From positions 4,899,212-4,963,211 of the forward strand of contig OZ241997.1 in NCBI GenBank assembly GCA_965204435.1: a DNA stretch of 64,000 nt, written 5' to 3'. The translations under genes were made by a program, and so were the position numbers. Source of the stretch: Bryobacterales bacterium. GTDB lineage: Bacteria; Acidobacteriota; Terriglobia; Bryobacterales; UBA6623. Of the stretch, positions 23,924 through 29,997 are shown in pieces. The notes under the pieces are model-generated. The model was not told the DNA's origin. It searched no databases and saw only the letters and a program-made list of their open reading frames with translations. How positions within the stretch are numbered: position 1 is the stretch's first letter; each line of letters begins with the position of its first letter.

Positions 23924-25749
23924 TGGTGCCCGGCCGAGCCCGACTGTTGCAGCCGCAAGCTTGGGCGGGCGTTCTGCTCGCGGCGGGCCTCGTCGGCTGC
24001 GCCGTCGACCAGCCCTCGCCTGGGCAGATTTCGCACGGCCCGATCTTGGGCCGACTCGCCTCCGACAGCGTTGCGGTTTGGGCGCGCACGCGCGCGCCCG
24101 CTGTCTTCCGGGTGCGCTACTGGCCGGTCGGTGGCACTGGCGAGCAGGTCTCGGTGCCGATTGCCACGACCCTCGACAGGGACAACACGGGCTGGGGGCT
24201 GTTGAAAGGGCTGGAGCCTGACACGCTGTACGCCTACCGCTTGGAGGCGGCCGGGACGGTGCCGCCCGTCGCGACGTTCCGCACTCTGCCGGCGGCTGCG
24301 GAAGTGGCGGACCCTAAGGTCAACCCGCGAGGACTGTTCAACTTTTCGTTCGAGTTCGCCTGCGGCAACAAGCAATTTGATTCCGACCAGCCCGCTTTTC
24401 GCACGATGCTGGCCAAGCTCGATGACCGGGCGCACTTCGCGATCCAGAATGGCGACTGGTTGTACGAAGAGCAGCGGGACTACCCGGCTGCGGAGTGGCT
24501 TCGGCAGAGCGGTGCCTCAGATGCGCCCAGGGTGGTCGCGCTGGCTCCCACGATCGCGGGAGTTTGGCAGAACTACAAGCTCTATCTTGAGCGCGGCCTC
24601 GACATGGCGGCCTGGCACCGCGAGATGCCGTCGTTCTTCGTTTTCGACGACCACGAAATCCTCGGTGACGTAAACGGTACGGGCACGATCGGCCTGCGCA
24701 GCCGCAGGGCTGTGTTCCGCGATATCGGCGTACAGGGCTGGTACGACTACCTCGGGTGGGCCAACGAGGTAGCCCACACCCAACCGATCCACTTCGGCAA
24801 GGCCAATTTGGAGGCAGGCGGTTCGATCCTGCGCGACGAGGACGGCGGCCTCAGCGGATTGGACCTGGCCCAGACAGCCACTCTGACGGTCCATTGGGGC
24901 GAGCCTGACGCGGGCGTGAACCTCAAGGAGCTTGACGCCGTCCGGGGCGACCCGAATGCGGGAGTCTACCGGATCGAGCAGGTGCTCAACGACAACAGCT
25001 TGAGGATCCATCCGGCGGCGGACGTCGATGGCAATGCCGCCTACTCGATCGGGCGCCTGAACTACTGGCGGCGCGCGATATCCAACGCCGAGTTCTTCTT
25101 CCTAGACACGCGCAGCCACCGGCAGGTGCATGACAAGGCGGATCCGTTCAAGCCCGGAGTCTCGATGCTGGGAGAGCGCCAAAAGCGCTGGCTGAAGCAG
25201 GGCATGCAGACCAGCGAGGCCGATTTCCTGTTCGTGATCTCGTCGGTGAACCTGATGGTCCCGCATGTCGGGCCGGGCATGGGCGGGCCCAACAAAGACG
25301 AGGCTTGGACCGCGATGGCGGCCGAACGGGAGGAGCTGATCAAATTCTGGGACGGCCTTGGCAAGCCTGTATTCGTGCTGACAGGCGACCTGCACAACAG
25401 CTTCGCCATCCAGATCACGGATCGCGTTCGCGAGTTCGCGGCCGGCCCGCACAGCTCCGGCAACCATGCCCTCGTGTCCGAGGCAGGCCGGCCGCCCAAC
25501 GGGGATTTCGAATCGCGCGGCCGCAACGCCCAGATTCGCTGGTCGACGTTCTTTCTCGACGACTCGAGCGAGCGCCGCAGGCCGGTGTATTGCGTGGTGC
25601 GCATCAGCAATGTCTTCAACAACCCGGGGCCGGAGGGCCGCCCGCGCTGGGTCGCGTACCCGCGGCCGCAAGCGATCTTCCAGTACTACGACGGCCTGAC
25701 CGGCGAGCTGCTCTACGCCGAATCGATCTTGGCGGCGGAGGCCTCGTGA
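23923..25749 (+). CDS. PhoD-like metallophosphatase lipoprotein
   Basis: ATG at 23923 overlaps the atpF stop (TGATG). The lipobox is LLAAGLVGC. GPILGRL...VWART, IQNGDWLYEE, VFDDHEI, FLDTRSHR and LTGDLHNSF match the alkaline phosphatase D family pattern. Confidence 0.8.
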   Translation: MVPGRARLLQPQAWAGVLLAAGLVGCAVDQPSPGQISHGPILGRLASDSVAVWARTRAPAVFRVRYWPVGGTGEQVSVPIATTLDRDNTGWGLLKGLEPDTLYAYRLEAAGTVPPVATFRTLPAAAEVADPKVNPRGLFNFSFEFACGNKQFDSDQPAFRTMLAKLDDRAHFAIQNGDWLYEEQRDYPAAEWLRQSGASDAPRVVALAPTIAGVWQNYKLYLERGLDMAAWHREMPSFFVFDDHEILGDVNGTGTIGLRSRRAVFRDIGVQGWYDYLGWANEVAHTQPIHFGKANLEAGGSILRDEDGGLSGLDLAQTATLTVHWGEPDAGVNLKELDAVRGDPNAGVYRIEQVLNDNSLRIHPAADVDGNAAYSIGRLNYWRRAISNAEFFFLDTRSHRQVHDKADPFKPGVSMLGERQKRWLKQGMQTSEADFLFVISSVNLMVPHVGPGMGGPNKDEAWTAMAAEREELIKFWDGLGKPVFVLTGDLHNSFAIQITDRVREFAAGPHSSGNHALVSEAGRPPNGDFESRGRNAQIRWSTFFLDDSSERRRPVYCVVRISNVFNNPGPEGRPRWVAYPRPQAIFQYYDGLTGELLYAESILAAEAS

Positions 25750-27656
25750 GCGCGGGTGAGCGGGTCGTTGCGGAGTACGGCTTCTGGAAATCGCCGATCA
25801 CGGCGGACTTAGTGGCCGGCAAGTCCATCCGGATAAGCGAGCCGGCGCTCGATGGCGATGAAGTCTATTGGCTTGAGGGCCGGCCGGCCGAGGGCGGCCG
25901 CATGGCCTTGGTCTGTCGCGGTCGCAACGGGAACGCTCGGGATCTGCTCCAGGCTCCCTCGTCCGTGCGCACCGGGGTCCACGAGTACGGCGGCGGAGCC
26001 TATGCCGTCCTGGATGGAACGATCTACTTTTCCGAGGCTCGCGACCGGCTGCTGCATCGCCTCGGCCCGGACGGCTGCTCGCAGGCGCTGACGGCGGCCG
26101 GCCCGCAGAGGTATGCCGACCTAGAGGTCGATGCGGCTCGTGAGCGAATCATAGCCGTCTGCGAAGACCACTCGGAATCGGGTCGCGAAGCGCGGCAGTC
26201 GCTTGTTGCGATTGCATCGGGGCCTGACATGCAGCCGGTGCGCTGCTTGCTCAAGGATTCCGATTTCTACTCCAACCCCCGTGTGAGCCCCGATGGCGCG
26301 CGCCTGTGCTGGCTCCAGTGGCAGCACCCGAACATGCCTTGGGACGGCACTGAGCTTTGGGTCGGGAACCTTGGTGCGGATGGCGGGCTGAGAAAGCGGG
26401 AGAAAGTTGCCGGCGGTGCTGATGAGTCAATCTTCCAGCCACAGTGGTCTCCGGCCGGTGAGCTCCACTACGTGTCCGACCGGACGGGGTATTGGAACCT
26501 GTACCGCCACGACGGCGGCGCCGTTCCGCTGCACGAACGGGAAGCGGAGTTCGGGCAACCGCAGTGGGTCTTCCGGATGTCGACGTACGGTTTCCTGCAT
26601 GACGGCAGGATTCTTGCCGCGTACTGCGAGCACGGCCGCTGGAGCTTGGGTCTGCTGGATGGCAGCGGCGAGCTCGATCCGGTTCACTCGCCGTACAGCC
26701 AGATCGACTCCGTCACGGTGCGCGGCGCCGAAGCGGTGTTTCGCGCGGCGTCGCCGACACAGGCCTCGGCCCTAGTGCGCATGGATCTGAGCTCGCGCCG
26801 GATCGAGACGCTCAGGGAATCCGCCGAGATTCCCGACCAAGTTCGTAGCTACTTCTCGGCTCCGAGCTCCGAGTATTTCCGTTCCGGAGACGGAACAGCG
26901 GTCCACGCCTTCTTGTACAAGCCCTGCAATCCGGACTTCGAGGCGCCCCCTGAGGAAAAGCCGCCGCTCATCATTCGTGTCCATGGCGGCCCGACCGCTG
27001 CTGCCAGCAACGCCTTGTCGCTGACAGTTCAGTTCTGGACCAGCCGCGGATTCGCCCTCGTCGACCTCAACTACGGCGGCAGCAGCGGGTTCGGCAGGGC
27101 CTACCGGGAGCGCCTGAGCGGCCAGTGGGGAGTCGTCGACGTCGAGGATACCGTCGCGGCCGCCCGGCATTTTGTCGCCCAAGGCCAGGCCGACGAAAAC
27201 CGCCTGATCGTCAAGGGCGGCAGCGCCGGGGGCTATACCGCTCTGTGCTGCTTGGCTTTCCGTGATGTGTTCGCAGCTGGTGCCTCCTATTACGGAATCA
27301 GCGAACTTGCGGGCCTGGCGGAGGAGACGCACAAGTTCGAGTCCAGATACCACGACACGCTGATTGGCGAATGGCCCGCCCAAGAGGCGCTCTTCCGCGA
27401 GCGCTCTCCGCTGGGCCGCGCAGGCCAAGTCAAGGCCCCCGTGATCTTCTTCCAGGGCTCGGACGATCCGGTTGTCCCCAAGGCGCAGACTGAGGCGATG
27501 GTGGCCGCGCTACGTCTCGGCGGCGTTCCCGTGGCGTACTACCTGTTTGAGGGCGAGTCGCACGGCTTCAAGGAGGCAGTGCATATCCGGCAAGCATTGG
27601 AGGCCGAGCTGGGCTTCTACGCGACGGTGCTCCTACGCATGGGAGTCCGCTCGTAG
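25746..27656 (+). CDS. S9-family serine peptidase (prolyl oligopeptidase / acylaminoacyl-peptidase type)
   Basis: GTG at 25746 overlaps the upstream stop (GTGA). An N-terminal beta-propeller-like region is followed by VHGGPTAAAS...DLNYGGSSGFGRAYR...IVKGGSAGGYTAL (GxSxGG nucleophile)...FFQGSDDPVVP...EGESHGF. Confidence 0.85.
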   Translation: MSAGERVVAEYGFWKSPITADLVAGKSIRISEPALDGDEVYWLEGRPAEGGRMALVCRGRNGNARDLLQAPSSVRTGVHEYGGGAYAVLDGTIYFSEARDRLLHRLGPDGCSQALTAAGPQRYADLEVDAARERIIAVCEDHSESGREARQSLVAIASGPDMQPVRCLLKDSDFYSNPRVSPDGARLCWLQWQHPNMPWDGTELWVGNLGADGGLRKREKVAGGADESIFQPQWSPAGELHYVSDRTGYWNLYRHDGGAVPLHEREAEFGQPQWVFRMSTYGFLHDGRILAAYCEHGRWSLGLLDGSGELDPVHSPYSQIDSVTVRGAEAVFRAASPTQASALVRMDLSSRRIETLRESAEIPDQVRSYFSAPSSEYFRSGDGTAVHAFLYKPCNPDFEAPPEEKPPLIIRVHGGPTAAASNALSLTVQFWTSRGFALVDLNYGGSSGFGRAYRERLSGQWGVVDVEDTVAAARHFVAQGQADENRLIVKGGSAGGYTALCCLAFRDVFAAGASYYGISELAGLAEETHKFESRYHDTLIGEWPAQEALFRERSPLGRAGQVKAPVIFFQGSDDPVVPKAQTEAMVAALRLGGVPVAYYLFEGESHGFKEAVHIRQALEAELGFYATVLLRMGVRS

Positions 27657-28066
27657 GCGTCCCGCGCGTTTCTCGCGGCGTTGAAGCGGCTTGCGAAGCG
27701 CCGACGCAGTCGCCAGCGCGCAAGGCCGTACTCGAAGTGCCGTCGACAGCGAATTCCGACCGCCCCGTCTCGCCCATCGCCTAACTTGTCCCGCTCATCA
27801 CCGGAGCATGCTGTACTCCTATGAAGATCCTGTGAAGGTCTTGGGGAGTCTTGGGCAGGCAAATTCAATGTTTGATGCGAACGGGGGTTGAGGCATGTCT
27901 TGGAGTGCGGGAGCTCGGCAGATGGCGTCCGTAAGCCGAGTCGGCAGGGCGTGCGAGCATGCCACAACACACGCAGGAGCCTTGGCACGGTCGCAGGGGA
28001 CCGCGCGGGCAGGGGTAGAGGCACACCTACGGCCGGGCCGCAGGGCCGGACAGGCGTGTGAGGCAG

Positions 28067-29880
28067 TCAGGCGAGCAGCAGGGCCACGGCCTCGTCCGGT
28101 TTCAGGTGCAGTTGGTCCATGCGGCGTTGGATGTTCTTCGTCTTGAGCAAGCGTAGGATCGAGATCGCGAGATTGGCGAAGGCAGCCATCAGGCGCGGCA
28201 GCGAGCCCTTGCGGATGCGGCTGGCGTCCTCGCGCAGGGCGACGTCGCGCACGTAGTGGACGCGGTTTTCAATGCCCCAGTAAAGTCGGTTCAGCTGCAG
28301 CAGTCGCTCGGGCGTGGCCCGTTCCGGCGGCAGGCTGGTCAGCAGGTAGACGGTCTCCGGCTTGCGCTGGCGGCCGTCCTTCTTGTAGGCGACCTCGCGC
28401 CGCACTTGGGCGACAAAGCGCACGCCGGGAAAGCTGATGTAGGACAGCTTTGGATCCAGTTCGTCCGAGACACGGATGCTGCGCAGCTCGATGCGGCCGT
28501 GCTCGCAGTCGCGGGTGGTGTGCGGCTGCAGACAGTCCCAGTGGAAGGAGTCGCGCACCTCCTCCAGCACCTTGTCTTGGTTGGCTTTTACGGTGAGCAG
28601 GTAGTCCAGTCCGAGGTCGAGCAGATGCTGCGCCGTGCCGCGCTGGGTGTGCAGCGCGTCAGCGATGACACAGCTGCCGGTGCCGGCCAGATCGCGCACC
28701 AGCGCGCGCAGCGCCGCCCCCTCGGCATCGTCCTTCTGCCCGCTGAAACCGAGCTGGCCGACCACCGTGCCGGAGTCCAGATCCAGCGCCGAGAGCTGCT
28801 GCTGGGCCGGCTTGTCCAGCGGCTGGCCATCCGCGCCCAGATCCCGGTCATACGACCCGCGCAGCACCTTGCCGTCCAGTGCGACCGCCTGCAGCGGCTC
28901 TGCGCCAGCGCCACCATCGTCGCTATCGTCGCTATCGTCTTCATTCTCCAAGGCTTGCTCGGCCGTCCAGGCTGCCATCAGACGCTCCACCTCGGCCTCG
29001 TCGGTGCGCTGCAGGATGTAGTGCCAGCTGCTGATGCCGGGCGCAGCCGCGAGCCGATCATCGCCAGGGTCTGTTGGCTCAGCGCCCGGCCGAAGTCGCT
29101 CAGCTGGGTCAGCGTCTGGCAGCCCGCCAGCCGCGCGCCGATCAGGATCGTCAGCGCGGTCTGCATCGGGTAGCGCAGCCCGTAGCAACTGCGCGTGTCG
29201 GGCACTTGGTCGAGGAAGGCGCGCAGGCAGCGCCATTGGGCTGGCTTGAGCATAATCTTGGGGCGCTGCCGGCGCCAGTCGGGCTGCGGCCTCGCAGCCG
29301 CGAGCTGTTGCCGCGCCGTGCGCCGTAACGGGTACACGAACACGCGCTTGGGCTGGCCGTGGCTGACGTAGCCGATGCGACCGCCGCGCTGCCGGCCGAA
29401 GCCTGCGCTGCGCCCGACCTCGATCCAGTTGGTGGCCCGGTAGCAGGTGCCGACGAAGCGGCTCGGGTCCACGAACGACTCGGCCAGCAGCAGTTCGTGA
29501 CCATGCCGTGCGAGCCAGTCGGCGCGCAGCCGGCGCAGACTCAGGCCGAGCACGCGCGAGGCCAGATGGGGCACGCTGCCGGCCTCGCACAGCAGCAAGA
29601 AACGGCTCTGATTGGCGACCAGGAACAGACGCTGGCGGCGCTGCAAGCTGGTCCAGCCGATCCAACGGTCGCGCGCGGCGCAGTGCAAGGCGGCGGCATG
29701 CCAGCCGACCAGCGCCAGCCAGCGATCGCCGAGCACGGCGACATGCCGCAGGCGATTGCCGCACAAGTTCCGGAAGCCGAGGTAGTGCCGCTCGCGCATC
29801 AACTCGTTCCAGCGCGACTCCTCGTCGGGCCGGACTGGACGGACCCGGACCTCGCGTAACGGGATGTGCTGCGATCCCAC
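28067..29880 (-). pseudogene. DUF4338 (DruA-like) domain fused to an ISAs1-family DDE transposase, split by a frameshift near 29030-29065
   Basis: Frame A (29880 down to about 29050) gives RERHYLGF, ARDRWIGW, VANQSRFLLL, HLASRVLGL, LAESFVDPSRFVGTCYRATNWIEVG (DUF4338-like), then LDQVPDTRSCYGLRYPMQTALTILIGARLAGCQTLTQLSDFG (ISAs1 N-terminal associated domain). Frame B (about 29050 down to 28067) gives PGISSWHYILQRTD...ALDGKVLRGS...VIADALHTQ...YLLTVKANQ...LYWGIENRVHYVRDVALREDASR (DDE_Tnp_1). The frames are offset by one nucleotide and no slippery heptamer is visible. Confidence 0.8.
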
Positions 29881-29982
29881 TCTGCGAGTTATCGCACAAC
29901 CACCGCTCGTTTGTCCAGCCCCTCTCCTAACTCCTTATGAAATCCGGCCCTCGCTATCGGACATTGAAAAGCCCTGGAGTCT

Positions 29983-29997
29983 TGGGGACTTGCTTGC
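29983..29997 (+). promoter_or_regulatory. candidate sigma-54 -24/-12 element upstream of the TonB-dependent receptor
   Basis: TGGGGA-CTTGC-TTGC has the spacing of TGGCAC-N5-TTGC, with GG and GC conserved. It lies about 60 nt upstream of ATG 30057. Only 7 of 10 consensus positions match. Confidence 0.2.

Follow-up and report, generated by a model that had tools for sequence, protein, structure and literature searches.

What is a domain named after an anti-phage protein doing at the front of a transposase, and why is the gene that encodes it split between two reading frames? Both questions arise from a locus on the minus strand of a 64,000-nucleotide (nt) stretch of DNA from a Bryobacterales bacterium (GenBank assembly GCA_965204435.1, contig OZ241997.1, positions 4,899,212 to 4,963,211 of the forward strand), which we call the window and within which all coordinates below are counted. 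The locus is very probably a copy of an insertion sequence (IS) from a subgroup of the ISAs1 family, whose transposase carries an N-terminal domain predicted to have the fold of GCN5-related N-acyltransferases (GNAT), with the phage Mu protein Mom as its best solved structural match, and which was killed by a 25-nt deletion of the kind left by replication slippage.

The coding part consists of two minus-strand frames. Frame A runs from a GTG codon at 29880, a start position common to the homologues in a protein alignment, to a stop at 28978, and covers the DruA/DUF4338 domain plus the beginning of DDE_Tnp_1_assoc. Frame B ends at the stop codon 28067-28069 and encodes the rest of DDE_Tnp_1_assoc together with DDE_Tnp_1, the switch between the two frames lying near 29040. 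When the frame was restored across the deletion, the repaired protein matched Pfam DruA (PF14236; 1.4e-24, 87 bits against a cut-off of 27, residues 6-163 aligned to profile positions 48-222 of 297), DDE_Tnp_1_assoc (1.6e-8, residues 222-307) and DDE_Tnp_1 (4e-12, residues 333-573). It also matched the NCBIfam equivalog NF033564, 'ISAs1 family transposase' (6e-44, 150.4 bits against a cut-off of 70), with residues 243-577 spanning model positions 2-314 of 314. Overall, matches of the N-terminal domain (N-domain) to PF14236 scored 87-92 bits against the gathering threshold of 27 and were partial, beginning at profile position 47 or 48 and ending at 222 of 297. A first-pass annotation, made from the sequence, had proposed that the two frames together encode one protein with DruA/DUF4338, DDE_Tnp_1_assoc and DDE_Tnp_1 domains, and the Pfam and NCBIfam matches bear this out: the scan of the repaired protein placed DUF4338 at its N-terminus, and the DUF4338 motifs that had been listed are real and lie on columns that are the best conserved in the family. 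The features of the coding part are as follows.

29236..29880, minus strand: N-terminal domain (Pfam DruA/DUF4338), predicted to be GNAT-fold and Mom-like, residues 1-215; Pfam DruA at 4e-26, AlphaFold2, Foldseek and profile-profile comparison
29045..29217, minus strand: N-terminal part of DDE_Tnp_1_assoc, of helix-turn-helix (HTH) type, in frame A; Pfam match, repaired residues 222-307
29038..29044, minus strand: deletion junction, the lone remaining GCGCCCG repeat; nucleotide alignment with the related copies L001, L002 and L003
28978..29037, minus strand: out-of-frame tail of frame A after the deletion, ASAAGTTSCSAPTRPRWSV and then the stop codon; three-frame translation
28067..29037, minus strand: coding remainder in frame B, comprising the end of DDE_Tnp_1_assoc, a variable acidic linker, DDE_Tnp_1 and the stop codon; Pfam and NCBIfam
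28874..28876, minus strand: codon of the first catalytic Asp, the D of DGK, D337 in repaired numbering; invariant column in the homologue alignment
28658..28660, minus strand: codon of the second catalytic Asp, the D of DALH, D409; invariant column in the homologue alignment
28268..28270, minus strand: codon of the catalytic Glu, the E of W-G-I-E-N, E539/N540; invariant columns in the homologue alignment

The codons of the D, D, E triad are all intact in the window copy, and the domain interrupted by the deletion is DDE_Tnp_1_assoc. The linker between that domain and the DDE domain (ENEDDSDDSDDGGAGAE, 28896-28946) is acidic and of low complexity, and its length differs by in-frame insertions and deletions even among copies that are about 94% identical.

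The element itself extends beyond this coding part and is bounded by inverted repeats and a target-site duplication.

27856..29976, minus strand: whole IS, 2121 bp; similarity to L001, L002 and the related copy L005 ends here, and the flanks differ
29977..29986, no strand: target-site duplication beside the left inverted repeat (IRL); minus strand CCCAAGACTC
29956..29976, minus strand: IRL, CAGGGCTTTTCAATGTCCGAT
29881..29955, minus strand: 5' non-coding leader from IRL to the start codon, with AAGGAG at about 29931-29936 as read from the sequence
27877..28066, minus strand: 3' non-coding region from the stop codon to the right inverted repeat (IRR), conserved with L001 and L002
27856..27876, minus strand: IRR; its reverse complement on the plus strand is CAGGCAAATTCAATGTTTGAT, and 15 of 21 positions match IRL
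27846..27855, no strand: target-site duplication beside IRR; minus strand CCCAAGACTC, the same as 29977-29986

The first-pass annotation could identify no terminal inverted repeats; imperfect 21-bp repeats are in fact present, IRL beginning CAGGGC and IRR beginning CAGGCA (four of the five bases of CAGGG). Its span of 28067-29899 covers the coding part only, and 29899 proved to be the TTG of a spurious open reading frame (ORF) of 610 amino acids (aa), which is frame B read far upstream and whose first ~280 residues are out-of-frame noise. The target duplication of the window copy is perfect over 10 bp. The same terminal repeats were found in L001 and L005, and each of L001, L003, L004 and L005 is flanked by a perfect 10-bp duplication, the sequences differing from copy to copy. 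Against L003 and L004, BLAST similarity stops just past the stop codon (window 28044), with the terminal repeat sequence still held in common.

These boundaries recur across the family. CAGG...CCTG ends together with an exact 9-11-bp duplication were found at 60 of 85 related loci, with CAGG termini in all 60 and duplications of 10 bp in 51, 9 bp in six and 11 bp in three. Intact relatives measure 2080-2490 bp, against 2121 bp for the window copy. No target consensus was detectable across 54 unique insertion sites, and the 64-kb window holds no second copy of the IS and no MITE (miniature transposable element with inverted repeats). One result counts against insertion as we describe it: a 29-nt pattern across the reconstructed unoccupied target had no match in metagenome contigs.

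Some relatives depart from this pattern. The L002 copy (168-2299) has good ends and no target duplication, and longer lineages occur in a Thermodesulfobacteriota genome (L013-L015, 2441-2443 bp) and in an alphaproteobacterium (L065-L066, 2490 bp). L013 and L014 are 100% identical over 2462 bp, reaching beyond the element, and both of their 'duplications' are ten G residues; they may represent one duplicated locus or an insertion into a poly-G tract.

Elements of the ISAs1 family have ends in CAGGG, target duplications of 8-10 bp, a length of about 1.2-1.5 kb and transposases of about 300-380 aa. The canonical members ISEc1, ISKpn31, ISRm21 and ISPa60 share with the window element a DDE_Tnp_1_assoc plus DDE_Tnp_1 core under NF033564, a single ORF, termini starting CAGG(G) and a short target duplication. 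ISEc1 has the termini CAGGGAAAGAT and CAGGGCAAGAT, its CAGGG ends lying 1291 bp apart; the ISKpn31 copy showed no CAGG ends within 500-bp flanks. The window element differs from these in being about 2.1 kb long, against 1291 bp for ISEc1, so that its ends fit the family whereas its size does not, and in being inactivated. Its subgroup further differs in the ~210-residue N-terminal domain of predicted GNAT fold: among 857 plasmid records with relatives, just 2 span 80% or more of the fusion protein. The canonical ISAs1 transposases listed on plasmids (ISKpn31, ISEc1, ISRm21, ISPa60 and ISAs12) mostly align from residue ~212-226 onward, so that residues 1 to ~210 are an addition peculiar to this subgroup. 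Because the excess length is this N-terminal domain, the element is a size variant of the ISAs1 family and is not excluded from it.

Extension of a standard DDE transposase at its N-terminus in one subgroup of a family has a parallel in the IS6/IS26 family, where transposases from Clostridia are described as including members with additional N-terminal domains (PMC6807381). In the present case the extra domain has a predicted enzyme fold with a conserved, putative active-site constellation.

How widespread is this architecture? A search of 5.8 billion proteins returned 474 homologues at E<1e-10. Among the 120 best, which were listed, nearly all are single proteins of ~580-630 aa with three Pfam domains, and their NCBI label, where they are named, is 'ISAs1 family transposase'. 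The transposases of the family have about 590-625 aa, and hundreds of intact homologues are single-ORF proteins of ~600 aa. They encode one fused protein and not separate genes, and their multiple copies defined the IS ends and the duplication, a route that the first-pass annotation had itself suggested. A genome scan with one genome per species yielded 581 relatives and 80 kept loci. These 80 come from Bryobacterales and Terriglobia (Acidobacteriota), Binatia, Thermodesulfobacteriota, Alpha- and Gammaproteobacteria and Bacillota, and the copies nearest to the window element among them are from Bryobacterales. Many genomes hold several copies that are 99.9-100% identical within one genome; multi-copy examples include at least 13 loci in one alphaproteobacterial assembly and 9 in one Bryobacterales assembly. 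L003 and L004, from one sample, are 99.95% identical and stand in different contexts. Such near-identical copies inside genomes indicate that the lineage was recently active. The element thus represents a distinct ISAs1-family subgroup of about 2.1 kb that is found across several phyla. The family is already in databases as ISAs1 transposases; neither the DUF4338-ISAs1 fusion nor a link between DruA and Mom is described in the literature searched.

Variants of the fusion also occur. A subclass of ISAs1 fusions (P0131, P0208, P0211, P0233, P0239, P0245 and P0258) has ~100-200 extra residues before the GNAT domain, which the window lineage lacks; P0233, for example, has 736 aa with a DruA match from residue 124. 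On a short metagenome contig (L130, 125-2375), a DruA/DUF4338 domain with an extra N-terminal extension of ~130 residues precedes, within one ORF, a low-complexity linker and an HTH_29/HTH_23/HTH_28 module; the ORF after it, which overlaps it, has DDE_3 (IS630-type). No ISAs1 remnant was found on this contig, a single case that may reflect an independent capture of the domain by a second family of transposases.

We next turn to the N-domain itself. By sequence, phmmer found no match to it among PDB proteins even at E 10. An AlphaFold2 model built on an alignment of 129 sequences reached a predicted local distance difference test score (pLDDT) of 94 and a predicted template modelling score (pTM) of 0.89, and the order of its secondary-structure elements is that of the GNAT fold; an earlier model from 41 sequences was poor (pLDDT 66), with non-significant PDB matches. 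Foldseek returned 182 PDB matches at E<=1e-3, and the best 50, which were listed, are all GNAT-fold proteins. Rank 1 is phage Mu Mom (8BV8) with E 6.3e-7, a template modelling (TM) score of 0.57-0.60 and an identity of 17-19%, the highest among the matches listed. Against predicted viral structures (BFVD), the top matches were phage proteins of the N-acyltransferase superfamily, ~190-240 aa long, with phage Mom at rank 4 (E 1e-8). DUF4338 has been called a GNAT domain in a one-sentence remark (PMC10853773), and our model predicts that the N-domain is indeed a GNAT-fold domain. Many large phage proteins of 400-880 aa, labelled homing endonuclease or endonuclease-like, also match the N-domain model in BFVD (E 1e-5 to 1e-6), which suggests that GNAT-like domains of this predicted fold are fused to DNA-cutting enzymes in phages as well.

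Mom, a GNAT-fold enzyme, modifies adenine at N6 in double-stranded DNA, drawing on Gly-tRNA(Gly) (PMC13219725). Its proposed active site comprises H58, Y59, R111, S124, D149, R151 and Y159, of which R111, S124, D149 and R151 are essential or nearly so, whereas mutants of H58, Y59 and Y159 are drastically less active; the protein also has an essential HTH-like insertion at residues ~175-209 (PMC13219725, where the numbering is that of the GenBank protein plus 10). For comparison we used a profile of 109 proteins, namely Mu Mom and 108 homologues from the protein search; the Mom loci in viral contigs (n=44) were 85-99% identical to Mu Mom and unsuitable for a profile. Aligning 128 N-domains with these 109 Mom-family proteins by hhalign gave E 3e-4 over 112 columns. 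Six of the seven proposed active-site residues of Mom fall on conserved N-domain positions in this alignment, which has a probability of 39%. The correspondences are listed with the conservation of the N-domain residue in the 128 sequences, in which the mean top-residue frequency over all N-domain columns is 54%.

Mom H58: window H32, 98% conserved
Mom Y59: window Y33, 92% conserved
Mom S124: window S108, 96% conserved
Mom D149: window D138, 95% conserved
Mom R151: window R141, 69% conserved
Mom Y159: window Y147, 100% conserved

The N-domain is as well maintained as the rest of the protein. The ratio of nonsynonymous to synonymous substitution rates (dN/dS) is 0.10-0.31 for the N-domain against 0.10-0.37 for the DDE core, and identity between distant lineages is 54-55% in the N-domain, 37-39% in the DDE core and 28-34% in the middle region. 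Judged from these comparisons, the N-domain appears to be a selected and obligate component of the transposase; the purifying selection on it matches that on the DDE core in strength. It is strongly basic, with an isoelectric point (pI) of 11.7; given that Mom acts on double-stranded DNA (PMC13219725), DNA binding is plausible. Mom and the N-domain are thus alike in predicted fold and in being basic proteins, and apparently also in the conserved counterparts of six active-site residues. They differ in that Mom, a late protein of the phage, stands alone and has an HTH-like insertion, whereas the N-domain is fused to a transposase and is known from sequence and model, with a sequence similarity to Mom below family thresholds.

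Several points weigh against a Mom-like reading of the N-domain. The window domain scores 15.3 bits (E 0.016) against Pfam Mom (PF25680), below the gathering threshold of 27.1. This family is the sole recurrent secondary match: 7 of the 41 members have it, each time below the threshold and over the α3-β5-α4 core; the best of the 41 relatives reached E 8e-4. The N-domain should therefore not be classed as a member of the Mom family. The hhalign probability is itself low, and R93, which is 99% conserved, corresponds to Mom R111 in a manual register only, hhalign having left a gap at this place. Ordinary acetyltransferases have Foldseek E-values within one order of magnitude of that of Mom, so that 'Mom-like' could mean merely 'GNAT'. 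Finally, conservation shows selection on the N-domain only, and not a requirement for it in transposition.

With these points taken into account, sequence and model still suggest that the N-domain is probably a ligand-binding or catalytic, Mom-like GNAT. The alternative that survives best is a non-catalytic, GNAT-derived module that serves DNA or protein binding or transposase multimerisation. Inactive GNAT folds are known to act as scaffolds; the high pI fits such a role, as does R141, which is just 69% conserved and yet is the counterpart of an essential Mom residue. However, H32, Y33, R93, S108, D138 and Y147 are near-invariant across phyla and coincide with residues on which Mom activity depends (PMC13219725), and such conservation is hard to explain by scaffolding alone. 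We regard a non-catalytic module as possible though rather doubtful, and on the evidence of conservation and the predicted fold we lean towards a domain that would be catalytically active. That it would modify DNA in the manner of Mom, with acyl-CoA or a charged tRNA as donor, is a more specific proposal that we consider unlikely.

The first-pass annotation had suggested that DUF4338 acts as a DNA-targeting or accessory module of the transposase. The predicted GNAT fold and likeness to Mom speak against a classical DNA-binding module. As the HTH-type DDE_Tnp_1_assoc has been kept beside the GNAT domain, 'accessory module' is the better description.

Why, then, is the gene of the window copy split? 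Compared with intact copies, it lacks 25 contiguous nt. The missing stretch reads GCGCCCGCAGACCGGGCGCTACGAA in L001 and lies between two 7-bp direct repeats, GCGCCCG, the L001 sequence at the site being CT-GCGCCCG-CAGACCGGGCGCTACGAA-GCGCCCG-GCATC. Nucleotide identity to the window copy is 94% for L001, 90% for L002 and 81% for L003 and L004. All 12 intact homologues aligned have eight extra residues, with the consensus PQTGRYEA, exactly at the frame switch; the deletion takes eight codons plus one nt, hence the -1 relation between the frames. Loss of one repeat together with the spacer between 7-bp direct repeats is a classic product of replication slippage. The rest of the gene has no further stop or frameshift, and dN/dS between the window copy and L001 is 0.23 (dN 0.019, dS 0.083, 603 codons), the same as among intact copies, indicating that the deletion is recent and the sole disabling change. 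As assembled, the window copy is a recently broken, non-autonomous pseudogene.

Could the deletion instead be an artefact of assembly or consensus calling, the real copy being intact and autonomous? Here it tells against our account that the deletion is known from the assembled sequence, and the nearest relatives come from long-read metagenome assemblies. Long-read errors, however, are typically of 1-2 nt in homopolymers, whereas the clean loss of a repeat plus spacer is a signature of biological slippage, and broken copies of the family are common elsewhere. We judge an artefact to be highly improbable.

A further explanation would take the frame-A ORF for a Druantia-type defence gene, DruA, that stands beside a transposase or was hit by one. 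Pfam would indeed give the 300-aa ORF the name DruA ('Druantia protein DruA'), and the likeness to DruA of Druantia type I, a five-gene anti-phage system, consists in membership of PF14236 with a score well above the gathering threshold. But the match is confined to the central part of the Pfam model, and the dedicated PADLOC DruA models gave no match at E<=0.01 to the full repaired protein; PADLOC DruA1 reached E 0.029 and 11.5 bits over 32 residues with the N-domain alone and found nothing in five homologues. No DruB-E genes lie near the window copy, whose neighbours encode an S9 peptidase and a TonB-dependent receptor, or in the contexts of L001-L004. Moreover, the domain lies inside the inverted repeats and is mobile with the IS at 60 loci, so that it belongs to a mobile element and not to a defence operon. 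This explanation deserves almost no credence, and the window element is not a Druantia component.

The first-pass annotation had also warned that stand-alone DUF4338 genes annotated as defence may be IS-derived. Among the 150 nearest representative clusters, 70 have no detectable ISAs1 part, and many of those have Arg/Ala/Pro-rich out-of-frame tails. All three of the 'stand-alone' relatives sampled are decayed or truncated IS copies: one has an internal deletion and a frameshift, one is truncated and one is cut by the contig end. The copy on a Thiodictyon plasmid (L132) is likewise split over two ORFs. To this extent the warning has partial support. It does not extend to dedicated defence finders, which should not be misled because the PADLOC DruA model barely registers.

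Two explanations of the split itself fare no better. The first-pass annotation had favoured a 1-nt deletion, as a point indel or a homopolymer-type sequencing error would give, and the -1 offset between the frames fits this. But when four intact copies are aligned with it, the window copy has a single uninterrupted gap of 25 nt and none of 1 nt; the protein lacks eight conserved residues, and the site contains no homopolymer. The lesion is the 25-nt deletion with its flanking 7-bp repeats, and a 1-nt change is extremely improbable. Programmed -1 ribosomal frameshifting, as in IS1 and IS3, would agree with the direction of the shift and is a device used by many IS families, but with no slippery heptamer at 29030-29065, nearly all of the listed close homologues being single ORFs with three domains and a product that would still miss the eight conserved residues, it is excluded for practical purposes. 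The absence of an A/T-rich slippery site and the view that programmed frameshifting is the less likely cause had both been stated in the first-pass annotation, and both hold; the copy is a pseudogene, every intact homologue being a single ORF.

The receptor gene beside the window copy encodes CarboxypepD_reg, Plug and barrel domains and is oriented divergently from the IS. The IRL end lies ~50-70 bp upstream of its likely start codon (30036 or 30057), so near that the insertion displaced any promoter farther upstream. The L001 copy likewise adjoins a TonB-dependent receptor gene, in a different arrangement. The L002 copy adjoins a large gene with a faint N6_Mtase match, and the Thiodictyon plasmid copy one that is very large and carries a DNA methyltransferase annotation; these methyltransferase-like neighbours may be a coincidence. 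The 64-kb window contains no tRNA or tmRNA genes and no Rfam families at the gathering threshold. It does contain further spurious ORFs, among them one of 305 aa antisense to the transposase (28256-29173) and one of 783 aa that extends the S9 peptidase gene from a TTG start (25305-27656). The GC-rich window (64-68% GC) has many such long ORFs, and ORF length alone is therefore no evidence of a gene.

Together our results suggest the following history and mechanism. An ISAs1-type copy would have inserted between the S9 peptidase and TonB-dependent receptor genes, and replication slippage between the GCGCCCG repeats would then have disabled it, the 25-nt deletion stripping eight conserved residues from the DNA-binding domain and putting the catalytic domain out of frame. 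Since both ends are intact, the window copy could in principle be moved in trans by an intact copy elsewhere in the host. In intact elements, by analogy with the family, the HTH of DDE_Tnp_1_assoc would recognise the inverted repeats, and the DDE core would carry out cutting and joining, staggered by 10 bp, with little target specificity. More tentatively, the GNAT domain may bind an activated acyl or aminoacyl donor and act on nucleic acid or on the transposition complex. It would do so as a Mom-like acyl- or aminoacyl-transferase, or at the least as a module that has this active site as its basis and binds a ligand and nucleic acid, and would link transposition with a step of modification or sensing.

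On its own, the window feature is an ordinary dead IS copy, and the interest lies in its family. This is a very successful, active IS lineage in which a DDE transposase has permanently gained a domain of predicted enzyme fold, better conserved than the catalytic core. Transposases normally gain DNA-binding modules and not GNAT enzymes, which points to an unrecognised step or control of transposition. For annotation, broken copies give rise to ORFs that Pfam-based pipelines name 'DruA', while intact copies are named only 'ISAs1 family transposase', a label that hides the extra domain. If the N-domain acts as proposed, chemical modification of DNA, or sensing of a metabolite or tRNA, would form part of transposition or of establishment in a new host, and the DNA modified could be that of the element ends, of the target site or of the host chromosome. 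Linking DUF4338/DruA to Mom also makes a testable prediction, namely acyl or aminoacyl transfer to nucleic acid. If it is borne out, Druantia DruA would, through its DUF4338 domain, modify nucleic acid in the manner of Mom, which would provide a first mechanistic handle on Druantia type I.

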